Assembly: GCA_944327625.1 (NCBI GenBank)
Contig: CALVHL010000025.1
Coordinates: 19,648-83,647 of the forward strand
Reading direction: 5' to 3'
DNA: 64,000 nt
Source of the DNA: an uncultured Clostridia bacterium
GTDB taxonomy: Bacteria; Bacillota; Clostridia; Christensenellales; Borkfalkiaceae
Shown here: in pieces, positions 22,698-56,155 of the stretch
Numbering within the stretch: the first letter of the stretch is position 1
Layout: each line of letters begins with the position of its first letter
Program-made: the position numbers and the translations under genes
Notes under the pieces: model-generated
The model's input: the letters and a program-made list of their open reading frames with translations, nothing else
Told to the model about the DNA's origin: nothing
The model's database searches: none

Positions 22698-23918
22698 TTA
22701 GCCAAGAATCTTGGAAACGACGCCGGAACCAACCGTTCTGCCGCCTTCGCGGATAGCGAACTTGAGCTTTTCTTCAACTGCAACGGGCTTGATGAGCTCG
22801 ACAGTGATGGTGACGTGGTCGCCGGGCATAACCATTTCGGTGCCTTCGGGAAGGTTGATCGAACCGGTTACGTCGGTCGTTCTGATGAAGAACTGAGGAC
22901 GATAGTGGTTGAAGAAAGGAGTGTGACGTCCGCCTTCCTCTGCTTTAAGAACGTAAACCTGAGCTTCAAACTTGGTTGCGGTCTTAACGGTGCCGGGCTT
23001 AGCGAGAACCTGTCCCTTTTCGATACCCTTCCTGTCGATACCACGAAGGAGTGCGCCGATGTTGTAGCCTGCGATAGCTTCGTCAACGCTCTTGTGGAAC
23101 ATTTCGAGACCGGTGATGGTCGTGCCGACGGGCTTGTCGATAAGGCCAACGATTTCTGCGGGATCGCCGACGTGAGCTACGCCTCTCTCTACACGACCGG
23201 TAGCAACGGTGCCACGGCCGGAGATGGTGAATACGTCCTCGACGGGAAGAAGGAAGGGCTTATCGGTGTCTCTCTGAGGGGTAGGAATATACTCGTCGAT
23301 GATGTTCATGAGCTCAAGAATGCACTGGCATTCGGGAGCTGCAAGAACCTCTGCATCGGAAGCGCCGGAGGTAGCCTTTTCAAGTGCTTTGAGTGCGGAA
23401 CCACGGATGATGGGGGTGGTGTCGCCGGGGAAGCCATAGCTCGAAAGGGTGTCTCTGATTTCCATTTCAACGAGTTCGAGAAGTTCGGGATCGTCCATCT
23501 GGTCGCACTTGTTGAGGAATACTACGATGTAGGGAACGCCAACCTGACGGGCAAGGAGAATGTGCTCCTTGGTCTGGGGCATGGGACCGTCGGTTGCTGC
23601 AACGACGAGGATTGCGCCGTCCATCTGAGCTGCGCCGGTGATCATGTTCTTGACATAGTCAGCGTGGCCCGGGCAGTCAACGTGTGCATAGTGACGCTTG
23701 CCGGTTTCATACTCTACGTGAGCGGTGTTTATTGTGATACCACGAGCCTTCTCTTCGGGAGCCTTATCGATTTCGTCGTATCTCATCTTCTGTGCCTGAC
23801 CCTTGCATGCCATAACCATTGTGATAGCTGCGGTCAGAGTGGTCTTGCCGTGGTCAACGTGGCCGATAGTGCCGATGTTAACGTGGGGCTTGCTGTTGTC
23901 GTACTTAGCCTTTGCCAT
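22698..23918 (-). CDS. tuf: translation elongation factor Tu
   Basis: [17 protein letters not shown] and NKCD G-motifs. 406 aa. Confidence 0.98.
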
Positions 23919-24032
23919 TTTAATTTCTCCTATTATTTTTTATAAAATGATAACTTACGCCTTGTAAGGCGTCGCAGCTATCCTTACGTCAATTTGGGGC
24001 TGCAATAATTTTTCGCCTAATGCGTTAAAATT

Positions 24033-24061
24033 ATTATATATTAAAAATTTTAAAAACACAA
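24033..24061 (-). promoter_or_regulatory. candidate tuf-proximal sigma-A promoter
   Basis: The minus strand reads TTGTGT-N17-TATAAT. The region is AT-rich, so this could be a chance match. Confidence 0.35.
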
Positions 24062-24094
24062 TTATTTTGACGTATGTTTTTAAAATTTTAGCCT

Positions 24095-24864
24095 TTTCGT
24101 AATTTTGTCGCTTAGTGACAGCGACAAAATTGACGAGGCTTAGCGGCTCTGCCGCTCTTGCCGCGACATTTTTTATTGCTCTCGATTATGAGAAGTCGCG
24201 GCAATTCACACCGCTGAGGTCGCAAGCGACTATTTGAGTGCGCTGGCGCAGGGAAACCCTGCTTGCGCCGCTAATTTATGTTTCGTAAATTTGTTTTCTG
24301 GTGACGAAAACAAATTTGACGATTTGAGGGCGTTGCCCTCGGCGGCGCAACCCTCAGCGCTCTCCATTCATTTAGTTGCGCCGCCTTCACCTACTGAGGT
24401 GGCGAAGCCACAAATGTGGTGCGCGGGCGCAAAAGCGTGGTTTTGCTTGCGCCGTTAGTTTTTTGTTTCGTAATTTTGTCGCTTAGTGACAGCGACAAAA
24501 TTGACGAGGCTTAGCGGCTCTGCCGCTCTTGCCGCGACATTTTTTATTGCTCTCGATTATGAGAAGTCGCGGCAATTCACACCGCTGAGGTCGCAAGCGA
24601 CTATTTGAGTGCGCTGGCGCAGGGAAACCCTGCTTGCGCCGCTAATTTATGTTTCGTAAATTTGTTTTCTGGTGACGAAAACAAATTTGACGATTTGAGG
24701 GCGTTGCCCTCGGCGGCGCAACCCTCAGCGCTCTCCATTCATTTAGTTGCTCCGCCTTCACCTACTGCCCGCCCGACGAAGTCGGTCGCACGAAGCGAAA
24801 GCGCAGCAGGTGTAGGTATGCACAAATGATGTGAAAGACCAAAAAGCGTGGTTTTTGGTCTTTC
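24095..24864 (+). repeat. four head-to-tail copies of a ~180-nt multi-hairpin element (E1 24095-24270, E2 24281-24454, E3 24466-24641, E4 24652-24864)
   Basis: 24095-24396 equals 24466-24767 with one mismatch (offset 371 bp). Each copy has the same ordered hairpins, with conserved linkers and different but complementary stems. Details are in the findings. Confidence 0.9.
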
Positions 24865-24920
24865 CGTGAATTATTCGGAAGCAGACCGCCTTAACAGGAA
24901 AATCCTGCTTTATTTATTAC

Positions 24921-27029
24921 TTAGTTATTCTTCTTAGCTCTGTCGCCTATTACCTTGTCGGCTACGGACTTGGGAACTTCGGAATAATGATCGAACTGCA
25001 TAGTGAACTGACCGCGTCCCTGAGTTCTCGAACGGAGGTCGGTAGCATAGCCGAACATCTCTGCAAGAGGAACTTCTGCGTCGACTACCTTTGCGCCTGC
25101 CCTGTCATCGGTGGAGATGATGGTGCCGCGCCTTGCGGTTACGTTACCCATTATATCGCCGAAATAATCGTCGGGGGTGATGACCTCTACCTTCATTATG
25201 GGCTCGAGGAGTACGGGCTTAGCCCTGGTCATGCCGTCCTTGAACGCCATAGAGCCTGCGATCTGGAATGCCATTTCGGACGAGTCGACCTCGTGATAGC
25301 TTCCGTCGTAAACCTGTACCTTGAAGTCTACCATTTCATAGCCTGCAAGGAAGCCGTTCTTTGCCGCGCCCTGAATACCCTTGTCGATTGCGGGGATATA
25401 TTCCTTGGGAATAGAGCCGCCGACGGTGAGGTCTTCAAACGAATATCCGCTGCCGGGTTCGCCGGGAATGAGGTGAATTTTGCAGTGACCGTACTGACCT
25501 TTACCACCCGACTGACGCTTGTACATACCCTCTGCGTCGCAAGCCTGACGGAACGTCTCTCTGTATGCAACTTGGGGTGCGCCGACGTTTGCCTCTACCT
25601 TGAATTCGCGCAGAAGTCTGTCGACGATGATGTCGAGGTGAAGTTCGCCCATGCCCGCGATGATGGTCTGTCCCGTTTCCTGATCGGTGTAGGTCTTGAA
25701 CGTGGGATCTTCTTCGGCGAGCTTGATGAGCGCCATGGTCATCTTCTCCTGACCTGCCTTGGTCTTGGGCTCTATCGAGAGCTGAATGACGGGATCGGAG
25801 AAGGTCATCTGTTCGAGTATTATAGGATGAGCTTCGTCGCAGAGCGTGTCACCCGTCGTCGTGTCTTTAAGACCGACTATCGCACAGATGTCGCCCGAAT
25901 AGATTTCGGGGATTTCCATACGGGTATTGGCGTGCATCTGCACGAGACGGCCAACCCTCTCCTTCTTGCCCTTCGTGGAGTTGTACACGTAGGAACCTGC
26001 GGAGAGCTTGCCGGAATAAGCTCTGAAATATGCAAGACGGCCGACGAAGGGATCGGTTGCGATCTTGAATGCGAGACCTGCGAAGGGTTCGTCGTCGGAG
26101 GTCTTTCTCTCCTCCTCTGCGCCCGTGTCGGGGTTTACACCCTTTACGTGGTCTACGTCGACGGGGGAAGGCAGATAGTCGATGACTGCGTCGAGCAGCA
26201 TCTGAACGCCCTTGTTCTTATAGGAAGAACCGCAGAGCACGGGGGTTGCCTTCATTGCTATGGTAGCCTTGCGAAGTCCCTGACGGATTTCGTCGGGGGT
26301 GAGCTCCATGGTGTCGAGGAACTTCATCATGAGTTCGTCGTCGCCCTCTGCCGCAGCCTCCATTACTGCAAGGTGCGCTTCTTCGGCGGCAGCCTTCATA
26401 TCCTCGGGAATTTCTGCCCTGTGGTACTGCTTGCCGTCGTCGCTGTCGTATATTTCGGCATTCATCTCGATGAGGTCGACGATGCCTCTGAAAGTATCTT
26501 CCTTACCGATGGGAAGTTCGATGGGAACGGGGTTGGCGTTGAGCCTCTCCTTCATCATCTTGACGGCCCTTTCAAAGTTAGCGCCGTTGATGTCCATCTT
26601 GTTGACGTAAGCTATGCGGGGAACCTTGTACTTGTCCGCCTGACGCCATACGGTTTCGGACTGGGGCTCGACGCCGCCCTTAGCGCAGAAGGTTGCGACC
26701 GCGCCGTCGAGTACGCGGAGCGAACGCTCGACCTCAACGGTGAAGTCGACGTGGCCCGGGGTATCGATGATGTTGATGCGGCATTCGTCCTTCTTGGTTG
26801 CGCCCGACCTCGTCCAATGGCAGGTGGTTGCAGCCGAAGTTATGGTAATGCCTCTCTCCTGCTCCTGAACCATCCAGTCCATCGTCGCGGTGCCGTCGTG
26901 CGTTTCGCCTATCTTATGGTTAATACCGGTATAGTAGAGTATACGCTCGGTCGTCGTCGTCTTGCCGGCGTCGATGTGCGCCATTATACCGATATTTCTG
27001 GTATGCAATAAATCGTATTCTCTTGCCAT
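24921..27029 (-). CDS. fusA: translation elongation factor G
   Basis: [17 protein letters not shown] and NKMD motifs. 702 aa. Confidence 0.98.
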
Positions 27030-27041
27030 AGTTTACCTCAA

Positions 27042-27512
27042 TTAGAAACGGAAGTGAGCAAACGCCTTGTTTGCCTCTGCCATTCTGTGGGTATCTTCCT
27101 TCTTCTTTACCGCGCCGCCTGCGTTGTTGTACGCATCCATGAGTTCTGCGGCGAGCTTAGCGCTCATATCTCTTTCGGAACGCTTCCTCGTGCTGATGAC
27201 GAGCCAGCGGATAGCGAGAGTCTGACGGCGTTCGGGCCTGATTTCCATGGGCACCTGATAGTTTGCGCCGCCTACGCGCTTAGCCTTTACTTCGAGTACG
27301 GGCATGATGTTGTTGAGCGCCTGGTTGAATACGTCCATGGGCTCCTGTCCGAGCTTCTCGCTCGCGATTTTGAGTGCATCATAGACGATAGTCTGTGCCG
27401 TGCCGCGCTTGCCGTCATACATTATCTGGTTTACAAGCTTGGTGATTACCTTGCTGTTGTACACGGGATCGGGTAATACATCCCTCTTGGGGACGCTTCC
27501 TCTTCTGGGCAT
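27042..27512 (-). CDS. rpsG: 30S ribosomal protein S7
   Basis: 156 aa starting [20 protein letters not shown]... RBS AAGGAGG. Confidence 0.97.
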
Positions 27513-27680
27513 AATGTTATCCTCCTTCTGAATTTTTAAGGGTTAGACCTTAAATAAGCTATTGCTTGCCCCGCGCAAAAGTTTTTTCGGGGTAGCAAAT
27601 CTTCTCCGCAACGCAGTTGCGAATACTGCCTACTTTTATCGGCTAAGGGTAGATATATTCCGAAACAAGTAGGGTGTCTG

Positions 27681-27908
27681 TTTCGTAAATTTGTTTTCCG
27701 GTGACGAAAACAAATTTGACGAGTTTTGGAGGCTCTGCCTCCCTGCCCTCAATTATAAGGGCTCTCGCATTGCTCAATTGAGGGCATTCCCTCCGCTGAG
27801 GCGCAGGTATGCGCTGATTGAGTGCGCTGGCGCAAAATAGCGATTTTGCTTGCGCCGTGATTACTTTTCAGAAATGTTTGCGCATCTTAGCAAACAAAAT
27901 TTACGAAA
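27681..27908 (+). repeat. fifth copy of the multi-hairpin element (27681-27857) plus an inverted copy of its first module (27877-27908)
   Basis: The module order matches 24095-24270, but every stem sequence is different and complementary. The terminal TTTCGTAAATTTTG / CAAAATTTACGAAA pair forms inverted ends. Confidence 0.85.
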
Positions 27909-27915
27909 GTAGTTT

Positions 27916-28290
27916 TTAGGACTTAGGACGCTTTGCACCGTAACGCGAACGGGCCTGCTTTCTCTTGGAAACGCCTGCCGTATCGAGTGCGCCGCGCACG
28001 ATGTGGTAACGAACGCCGGGGAGGTCCTTAACTCTGCCGCCGCGGATGAGGACGGACGAGTGCTCCTGAAGGTTGTGGCCTTCGCCGGGAATATATACGG
28101 TACCTTCCTGCTTATTGGTAAGTCTTACCCTCGCGATCTTTCTGATTGCGGAGTTAGGCTTCTTGGGCGTCGTAGTGGTAACCGAGAGGCAGACGCCGCG
28201 CTTCTGGGGACAGTTGTCCAGAATGGGCGACTTGCTCTTGTATACCTGCTTTTCTCTGCCGTGCTTTATAAGCTGATTGATTGTGGGCAT
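27916..28290 (-). CDS. rpsL: 30S ribosomal protein S12
   Basis: 124 aa starting [14 protein letters not shown]... RBS AAGGAGGAG. Confidence 0.97.
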
Positions 28291-28451
28291 TTAATGCTCC
28301 TCCTTGCTTTACTCGACCGAATGTCGGTCTGTGGAATATATCCTGCCCGTCGTATTTACCCTTAAAAACACGATGGATAGAAATCAATAAAATAAATCGT
28401 TCAGATGAGCGGTTAAGCATAACAACCCAAATTAACGATTGAGCAAAAGCT

Positions 28452-28480
28452 ATTCTATCAAATGCCGACGCAATTGTCAA
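28452..28480 (-). promoter_or_regulatory. sigma-A promoter of the str operon
   Basis: The minus strand reads TTGACA-N17-TAGAAT, about 160 nt upstream of rpsL. Confidence 0.6.
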
Positions 28481-55720: not shown

Positions 55721-55860
55721 TATAGAGTTATCTCCTTGATTTTTTACCTTATTATTTCCGCCGCTCAACGCGGCTTTATTATTCTCTTTTCCCCGATTGA
55801 ACGGCACATATCCCCGCCCCAATCGGTTTTTTACAACCCTGCTTCCCAAATAATTATGTT

Positions 55861-56155
55861 GCGCAAGCAAAATCGCCATTTTGCGCCAGCGCACCGCATT
55901 TGTGGCTTCGCCACCTCGGTAGGTGAAGGCGGCGCAATTATTATATTTGAGAGCACTTTAAGATTGCGCCGCCGAGGACGAGGGCGGACTTCTCAAAATG
56001 TGCCTCGGCTTGGCACATTTTGCCGACCGAGATAAGTCCGACACATCAGGTCGTGGCGGACGATGACCGAGCAAGGCGTTGCCATTACGCCTTGCGAGAA
56101 AGCGCCCTCAACCTCGTCAAATTTGTTTTCGTCACCAGAAAACAAATTTACGAAA
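55861..56155 (-). repeat. sixth copy of the multi-hairpin element, on the opposite DNA strand to the str copies, with an expanded second hairpin
   Basis: The minus strand starts GTTTCGTAAATTTGTTTTCTGGTGACGAAAACAAATTTGACGAGG. It ends ...GGCGGCGCAA-N-TTGCGCCGCCTTCACCTACCGAGGTGGCGAAGCCACAAATGCGGTGCGCTGGCGCAAAATGGCGATTTTGCTTGCGC. Confidence 0.85.

Follow-up and report, generated by a model that had tools for sequence, protein, structure and literature searches.

The str operon of an uncultured Clostridia bacterium of the family Borkfalkiaceae has a spacer of 403 nt between rpsL and rpsG (27513–27915), and the question raised by this locus is whether the structured element inside that spacer is a mobile DNA repeat or an RNA that serves the operon. 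All positions given without a contig name are those of the window, i.e. the whole stretch of 64,000 nucleotides that was analysed. The operon genes lie on the − strand: rpsL (ribosomal protein S12, 124 aa; 27916–28290), rpsG (ribosomal protein S7, 156 aa; 27042–27512), fusA (24921–27029) and tuf (22698–23918). They were read as ORFs and identified by Pfam on the identical genes of conspecific contigs (PF00164 for rpsL and PF00177 for rpsG); looking up EF-Tu by exact match returned no record. The sole strong promoter match between 23800 and 28500 is a promoter-like site 5′ of rpsL (TTGACA-17-TAGAAT with a TG; 28452–28480, − strand), assigned by consensus match only. The initial annotation had called the spacer unusually long, and its length is as reported; what was overlooked is that ∼162 nt of it are a conserved rpsG leader. 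The remainder consists of ∼7 nt after the rpsL stop codon and an insert of ∼233 nt (27676–27908), which contains one complete repeat unit together with a degenerate inverted hairpin of module 1 (M1). The insert takes up the one stretch that can be dispensed with between the end of rpsL and the conserved leader.

The structured rpsG (S7) leader with its ribosome binding site (RBS; 27513–27675, − strand) is not part of the repeat. It is conserved across the genus, being kept in relatives with and without the insert, and it is intact beside the insert. An alignment of the leader from 14 species gave a common fold in which 27 pairs are predicted, with compensatory change at 10, and in which ∼13% of the cells are G·U; many of the G·U pairs are invariant and one-sided changes are frequent. 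The elements of the fold are CCUACUU..AAGUAGG, a co-varying hairpin, GCUACCnC..GnGGCAAGC and UUAAGG..CCUUAA, followed by the RBS. The leader has no Rfam match and is a candidate S7 autoregulatory RNA. We used it as a neighbouring, plausible true-RNA control for G·U content.

The complete repeat unit (27681–27858) is read on the + strand and, as all of the genes are on the − strand, is antisense to the str operon. Direct reading of the sequence gives five hairpins. The first, P1, is formed by M1 (27681–27722) and has a 12-bp upper stem, the loop CGGTGAC, a 4-bp base (TCGT/ACGA) and a one-nucleotide bulge. It is followed by P2 (27728–27742; GGAGGC-TCT-GCCTCC) and P3 (27744–27786; TGCCCTCAATT...AATTGAGGGCA, with GCTCTC within the loop). 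The J3/4 linker (27787–27800), which ends in CCGCTGAGG, leads to P4 (27801–27814; GCGCA-GGTA-TGCGC), and the J4/5 linker (27815–27823) leads to P5 (27824–27855), which contains GCAAAAT-AGCG-ATTTTGC. The unit is closed by CGT (27856–27858) and continues into a tail or linker, GATTACTTTTCAGAAAT (27859–27875), the counterpart of the ATTATTTAGGAAGCAG tail in the flanks of the other copies (n = 29 copies).

The initial annotation had proposed that 27681–27857 repeats, module by module, the architecture of unit E1 at 24095, with stems that are altered yet remain complementary. This description holds: all of the listed stem replacements are present, the complementary modules can be read straight off the sequence, and the linkers CCGCTGAGG, TTGAGTGCGCTGGC and TTGCGCCG are the same in the rpsL–rpsG unit and in E1. 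Its further proposal that the rpsL–rpsG element is the element of the fusA–tuf spacer is confirmed in two ways. The repeat finder ties 27679–27744 and 27822–27867 to the fusA–tuf units (families D2–D4), and a covariance model (R1) built on 15 genomic copies matches the rpsL–rpsG copy with 186 bits (E = 7e-48). The rpsL–rpsG unit is a member of this repeat family. A search for TTTCGTAAWTTTG with at most 2 mismatches gave 12 matches, 7 of them exact, against 3.6 expected; none of 100 shuffles reached 12, and a chance origin of these matches is excluded.

The family is large within its host and restricted outside it. In the 1.83-Mb draft genome of this bacterium (G000), nhmmer gave 43 hits, corresponding to ∼35 copies, many of them situated at the ends of contigs and several arranged head to tail in arrays. 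With the covariance model, 20 of the 25 genus genomes proved to carry the element, copy numbers across the genus running from 0 to at least 59, and it was detected in 5 of the 23 sampled genera of the family, where a second genus is high-copy and three genera are single-copy. The same search showed the element to be absent from 16 other families of the order, and collections of phages and plasmids held no match to it. A genome-wide pattern scan produced many chance hits in GC-rich genomes, which were discounted; the credible matches were confined to Borkfalkiaceae, 'Christensenella' and Clostridia gut MAGs (from mouse, chicken, rabbit and other sources).

Two further loci in the window carry the repeat. 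The fusA–tuf spacer contains a sibling array of four tandem units arranged A-B-A-B′ (24095–24871, + strand, antisense to the operon), detected by the repeat finder and the covariance model, and a single copy lies downstream of asnB (55852–56155, − strand, sense; 137 bits with the covariance model, the gene being identified by its AsnB Pfam hit). Elsewhere in G000, units split S10|L3 (C17:3553–3792) and S17|L14 (C17:8735–8955), both in the sense orientation. Together with the two str-operon spacers, this means that four translation-operon junctions in G000 carry the repeat. The orientation of the G000 loci relative to their flanking genes is mixed, with ∼9 sense (among them S10|L3, S17|L14 and asnB) and ∼5 antisense (among them S12|S7, EF-G|EF-Tu and ruvC|ruvA). 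Since the S10 and spc operons harbour sense copies and those of the str operon are antisense, neither orientation terminates the transcription of essential genes. Units in tandem are 1–5 nt apart, without ORFs between them.

Some of the copies are enlarged. The asnB copy is one of four with an expansion of ∼110 nt in the P2 loop; an expansion of ∼125 nt in the P5 loop (ACGAACGAGCAC..CATAGGA..hairpins..) is present at G000 C4:48050–48416 and probably also at C16:39954–40199 and C19:1–214; and some units, including one in the window (24767–24815), have an insert of ∼45 nt in a CTG^AGG mini-hairpin. All of the expansions (45–125 nt) are located at hairpin tips or in this small CTG^AGG hairpin. 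We also considered a second element (an IS or a group II intron target) inserted after GCGCAGGG at C4:48219, C16:39954 and C19:73, and rejected it because at C4 it corresponds to the P5-loop expansion. At C16 and C19 the contig stops before the copy is complete, and the reading as an expansion was settled at C4, where the ∼125 nt lie between ilvN and ilvD and have neither coding capacity nor an Rfam hit.

Comparison with related species shows that the insertion is polymorphic. In G015 and G011, ∼25 nt separate the rpsL stop codon from the rpsG leader, and the block 27676–27908 is missing from the spacer alignment. As these relatives have a short rpsL–rpsG spacer without the element, the element behaves as a mobile repeat. 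The same was seen at other sites: 8 of the 12 G000 loci tested with joined flanks are empty (contiguous) in G046, G015 or G011, and alignment confirmed four of these empty sites, namely S17|L14, a glycyl-radical-enzyme junction, S10|L3 and ruvC|ruvA. The sites themselves are AT-rich and short, each being the spacer that runs from a stop codon to the RBS of the following gene. No target-site duplication was visible in the four filled/empty comparisons, in which the flanks are 15–20% diverged and AT-rich; no target motif was found 5′ of the unit among 22 left flanks; and no transposase linked to the repeat was found. It is therefore from presence and absence only that we infer mobility.

The initial annotation had named a short, element-free spacer in close relatives as the outcome that would point to a mobile repeat. 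Such spacers exist between species (G015 and G011), but not as a strain polymorphism, as the insert is fixed within the species: the 403-nt spacer of five conspecific contigs, taken from independent metagenome samples, is 100% identical to that of the window. This identity is compatible both with constraint and with recent ancestry. In a sister species (G046, and also contig L073) a unit is found at the same junction, in the same orientation and with a similar flank (..AGACA..), and on this basis the insertion is probably common to G046 and the window species. The G046 copy carries other variants of P2, P3 and P4, has mismatched stems and scores 67 bits as against 186, which fits decay and conversion by other copies and does not fit a locally constrained RNA.

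Units are found around this junction in further species. In G018 (L037:2326–2700) a unit at the same rpsL–rpsG junction is followed by a direct solo M1; it may be a separate insertion into the same short interval where insertions are tolerated, or else an old insertion that was lost elsewhere. In G062 and G064 (L031 and L029) a unit lies ∼100 nt further downstream and replaces the 5′ part of the leader. Other positions around rpsL–rpsG are occupied as well: four species have a unit upstream of rpsL, and in two species it lies within the leader region. Overall, 9 of 30 genus genomes (G000 included) have a unit at most 1.5 kb from rpsG. Eight units lie near rpsL–rpsG in different species, and 7 of them run antisense to the operon; though small, this sample hints at orientation selection there.

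The neighbouring fusA–tuf array varies within the species. Both the window and one Brazilian sample show four units, and another conspecific sample shows three (L223:4710–5518, compared with window 23919–24920). L223 also restores a stem mismatch of the window copy at ∼24751 (GTTGCTCCGCC vs GTTGCGCCGCC). The difference between three and four units may be a real polymorphism, i.e. ongoing expansion and contraction of the array, or, if it is an assembly artefact, the collapse of an array during assembly.

We analysed base pairing in a set of 51 copies from ∼20 species. Compensatory (double) changes were found in 48 of 51 pairs and 93.8% of the cells were paired; none of 500 shuffles reached the observed values, and register slides likewise fell far below the observed covariation. 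Stem pairs were counted with a hairpin aligner that gives G·U and A·C the same score, which yielded 2026 Watson-Crick pairs as against 54 G·U, 34 A·C and 89 mismatches of other kinds. One conserved motif in P5 accounts for 32 of the G·U pairs; across P1–P4 there were 22 G·U against 29 A·C among ∼1,700 pairs, i.e. no wobble enrichment, in contrast to the ∼13% G·U cells of the rpsG leader. In P2, P3 and P4, one-sided changes numbered ∼5, against more than 230 double changes. The two strands of the rpsL–rpsG copy fold with −76.3 and −75.3 kcal/mol, and over 48 copies the difference between strands averages 1.6 kcal/mol, in favour of the opposite strand. Promoter and terminator signals inside the units did not rise above chance. 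Rfam 15 gave no hit in the whole window at the gathering score, and at E ≤ 10 in 23800–28400 gave only a chance match to DUF2693-FD (18.9 bits; gathering 44.5) that lies inside rpsG and outside the element. Two candidate pairings were set aside in the course of this analysis. The GCU-AGU pairing that the covariance model places around P4 was dropped, with CCGGTGAGCC and CCGCTGAGGC co-varying as a mini-hairpin of 2–3 bp, and an alternative pairing of J3/4 with the 5′ strand of P2 showed by-eye covariation that was inconsistent across copies.

The covariation that the initial annotation described as RNA-like is thus strong, but its detail is not that of an RNA: the changes are Watson-Crick double swaps without a G·U excess, and the strands fold equally well. 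The stems are Watson-Crick paired and symmetric with respect to strand. That annotation had also pointed to a tension between MITE-like ends and RNA-like covariation, and we think that this tension probably settles in favour of a mobile DNA repeat with stems that are maintained at the DNA level.

The most likely explanation of 27676–27908 as a whole is that it is an insertion of a non-autonomous, mosaic, palindromic intergenic repeat that is carried passively, and not a regulatory RNA specific to the operon. One unit of ∼185 nt consists of five hairpins joined by conserved linkers, and the repeat family is dispersed, forms both tandem arrays and convergent pairs, and is patchily distributed in one family of gut Clostridia (Borkfalkiaceae-type MAGs). 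At rpsL–rpsG the unit would ride antisense on the str-operon transcript as passive cargo, and any effect on the operon would be at most generic, in the form of extra stable hairpins in the mRNA. The complementarity of the stems would be kept at the DNA level and not by selection on RNA at this locus, the likely route being intrastrand template switching or gene conversion, both from arm to arm and from copy to copy. Template switching is documented to yield perfect compensatory hairpins (PMC8794818), and compensatory change free of wobble pairs would be the expected product of intrastrand template switching combined with arm conversion. The discrete stem variants that are shuffled among copies point to inter-copy recombination. 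A folded single strand may in addition be required during mobilisation, and the conserved linkers and the one-sided M1 bulge could serve as recognition features for a putative mobilising or recombining protein.

Several features of the units bear on this last possibility. From species to species, the stems vary more than the linkers and some of the loops (ATTCAC, CCGCTGAGG, CAAATnnnGTGCGC, GCTTGCGCCGT). In most cases M1 carries a bulge on one side, and the conserved motif in P5 can pair only by means of two G·U or else forms an internal loop. Conserved linkers and expansions at hairpin tips are also hallmarks of functional structured RNAs, and the M1 bulge and the P5 motif are strand asymmetries that would be superfluous for a purely double-stranded palindrome. 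Taken together, the linkers, tip expansions, M1 bulge and P5 asymmetry point to recognition of one strand in its folded form, the most economical candidate for the reader being a mobilising or recombining enzyme, much as with attC sites or the hairpins of IS200/IS605 and REP. A stronger version of this idea is that the repeat represents a new class of structure-dependent mobile element, in which an enzyme that is not of the Y1/RAYT type reads a folded single strand (DNA or RNA), attends only to the linkers and the fold, and enters the spacers of highly transcribed operons (str, S10, spc) preferentially. Since nothing but the linkers and the general fold would matter to this enzyme, perfectly paired, hypervariable stems and expansions at the tips would be tolerated. 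We regard this version as unlikely.

Another possibility is that the repeat is a domesticated host element of the REP/BIME/BOX type with a generic role in cis, i.e. that it tunes mRNA stability, decouples cistrons or binds a nucleoid or topology protein. The location of the units is what would be expected of such an element, as they favour the spacers of co-transcribed housekeeping genes, including the four translation-operon junctions, and recur within 1.5 kb of rpsG in the 9 of 30 genus genomes described above. The insert is moreover fixed and invariant in the species, its hairpins form whichever way it is oriented, and an effect of BOX elements on co-transcribed genes has been suggested (PMC3049150). 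However, most orthologous sites are empty in close relatives, there are congeners with zero copies, and the old copy in G046 is degenerating; the enrichment in operon spacers may simply mirror where a compact genome tolerates insertions. Domestication is therefore quite unlikely.

A third possibility is that what has been copied is a structured non-coding RNA gene or a retro-mobilised functional RNA, with the str copy expressed from the + strand or acting as an antisense or processing element. The very strong covariation over five hairpins, the single-stranded linkers kept across species and the restriction of the expansions to hairpin tips would all be expected of such an RNA, as would the one-sided M1 bulge and the conserved G·U positions in P5; the antisense orientation of 7 of the 8 copies in the str region would also agree with it. 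Against this, P1–P4 lack G·U enrichment, folding energy is equal on both strands, and essential operons contain units in either orientation. The units, which in tandem are only 1–5 nt apart, showed neither promoter nor terminator, and there is no Rfam hit. The orthologous copy in G046 is decaying, and a copy number that ranges from 0 to at least 59 among congeners implies that the element is dispensable. We therefore consider an RNA gene very unlikely.

The remaining part of the insert is the inverted M1 (27876–27908, − strand, sense to the operon), a remnant of variant 'c' with the 5′ arm TTTCGTAAATTTTGTTTGC, the loop TAAGATGC and 6 nt of the 3′ arm (GCAAAC). The orientation of the loop shows that this segment is module 1 inverted relative to the main unit, and the inverted arms at 27681–27697 and 27892–27908 are 88% complementary (inverted repeat I4). 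The reverse-complement copy of module 1 that the initial annotation had noted downstream of the unit is accordingly real, but it is of another M1 variant and its 3′ part is degenerate. Its loop is that of the module-1 variant of copy C16:13189 and not that of the main unit's variant, and only the 5′ arm, the loop and the 6 nt of the 3′ arm are well preserved. The rest of the inverted hairpin, at ∼27858–27875, is degenerate, and the main unit's tail overlaps with it; the wider hairpin extends over ∼27858–27911. In a profile search with M1 the remnant fell below E = 0.01.

A unit followed by an inverted M1 was found at 2 of ∼22 loci in G000, namely rpsL–rpsG and C17:3553–3792. As for other M1s, one locus has a direct solo M1 after a unit and one has a lone solo M1; the remaining units end in a tail hairpin (ATTTATTTAGGAAGCAG...CTGCTT) or adjoin the next tandem unit. 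With 2 of ∼22 loci, the inverted end is a local arrangement, and the earlier suggestion that the unit is flanked by inverted ends as a MITE-like trait has to be abandoned, as inverted M1 is not a terminal inverted repeat of the family. Most simply, the inverted M1 is the remnant of a second, convergent unit, such as is present in the full convergent pair at C8:32–446. A classical MITE, in which the unit and the inverted M1 would carry terminal inverted repeats cut and pasted by a DDE transposase acting in trans, would account for the inverted M1 here and at C17:3553–3792 and for the variation in presence between species, but is extremely improbable given that the inverted M1 is found at just these 2 of ∼22 loci, that most units end in the tail hairpin or adjoin the next tandem unit, that the four filled/empty comparisons (with their diverged, AT-rich flanks) revealed no target-site duplication, that the G000 nhmmer hits included no longer parent element, and that head-to-tail arrays are atypical of MITEs.

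The reading as a passively carried palindromic repeat accounts for the oddly long rpsL–rpsG spacer and for many of the contig breaks in these MAGs, and adds a large, modular, uncharacterised repeat family to a lineage of uncultured gut Clostridia. It also illustrates that strong 'covariation' in paralogous palindromic repeats is not to be taken as evidence of an RNA gene, and that the RNA and DNA readings can be separated by the G·U versus A·C spectrum, by comparison of the two strands and by the use of a nearby true RNA leader as a control. The repeat family tolerates, and possibly prefers, junctions within essential translation operons, and this preference, together with the nature of the repeat's mobiliser, is the chief remaining interest of the system.

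The family can be compared with several known systems. As with REP/BIME elements, the units are extragenic, often lie between co-transcribed genes in both orientations and are themselves co-transcribed; they are palindromic, are mosaics of a few discrete variants, occur in clusters and arrays, are limited to related species and are dispensable at each site. They differ in that REP/BIME are built on a single palindrome of roughly 35 nt (∼20–40 nt), whereas the present unit has ∼185 nt with five hairpins and conserved linkers, forms head-to-tail arrays of whole units and carries expansions of 45–125 nt at hairpin tips. REPINs of enterobacteria and pseudomonads are mobilised by RAYT Y1 transposases. 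A RAYT/Y1 transposase was considered as the mobiliser here and rejected, as it does not co-occur with the repeat: PF01797 was found in G000, G002, G005 and G006 only, i.e. it is missing in G004 (at least 59 copies) and G010 (∼30 copies) and present in the repeat-free G005. In G000 it is represented by a lone IS200/IS605-type Y1 transposase gene (C1:212364–212720, − strand; E = 1.8e-39) on a contig without units.

With BOX (boxA-boxB(n)-boxC), RUP and SPRITE of Streptococcus pneumoniae the family shares a modular build, extensive secondary structure and co-transcription with flanking genes. The pneumococcal elements are structured, are nearly absent outside close relatives and have been read as parasitic, with a low current rate of transposition (PMC3049150). 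Unlike them, the present family belongs to Clostridia of the Christensenellales type, and no sequence relation was found between them. Where BOX varies the number of one module, the present unit has the fixed module order P1–P5 with variable stems, and the inverted-repeat-like A/C pair of BOX is for the most part lacking here.

There is also a likeness to attC sites and to the subterminal hairpins of IS200/IS605, in which structure is kept while stem sequence varies and covariation is of the Watson-Crick type only; as in these, the one-sided extrahelical bases could mark one strand. In contrast to integron attC arrays, there are no cassettes between the units (gaps of 1–5 nt), and the unit is far larger and made up of several hairpins. 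In contrast to the strand-biased insertion of IS200/IS605, orientation is mixed relative to co-directional ribosomal operons, and Y1 does not co-vary with the repeat. The lack of shared sequence, the larger five-hairpin unit, the head-to-tail arrays, the lack of a RAYT link and the lack of general terminal inverted repeats set the family apart from REP/BIME, BOX, RUP and SPRITE. The repeat is therefore a bacterial interspersed palindromic repeat that resembles REP/BIME and BOX and belongs to none of these named families.
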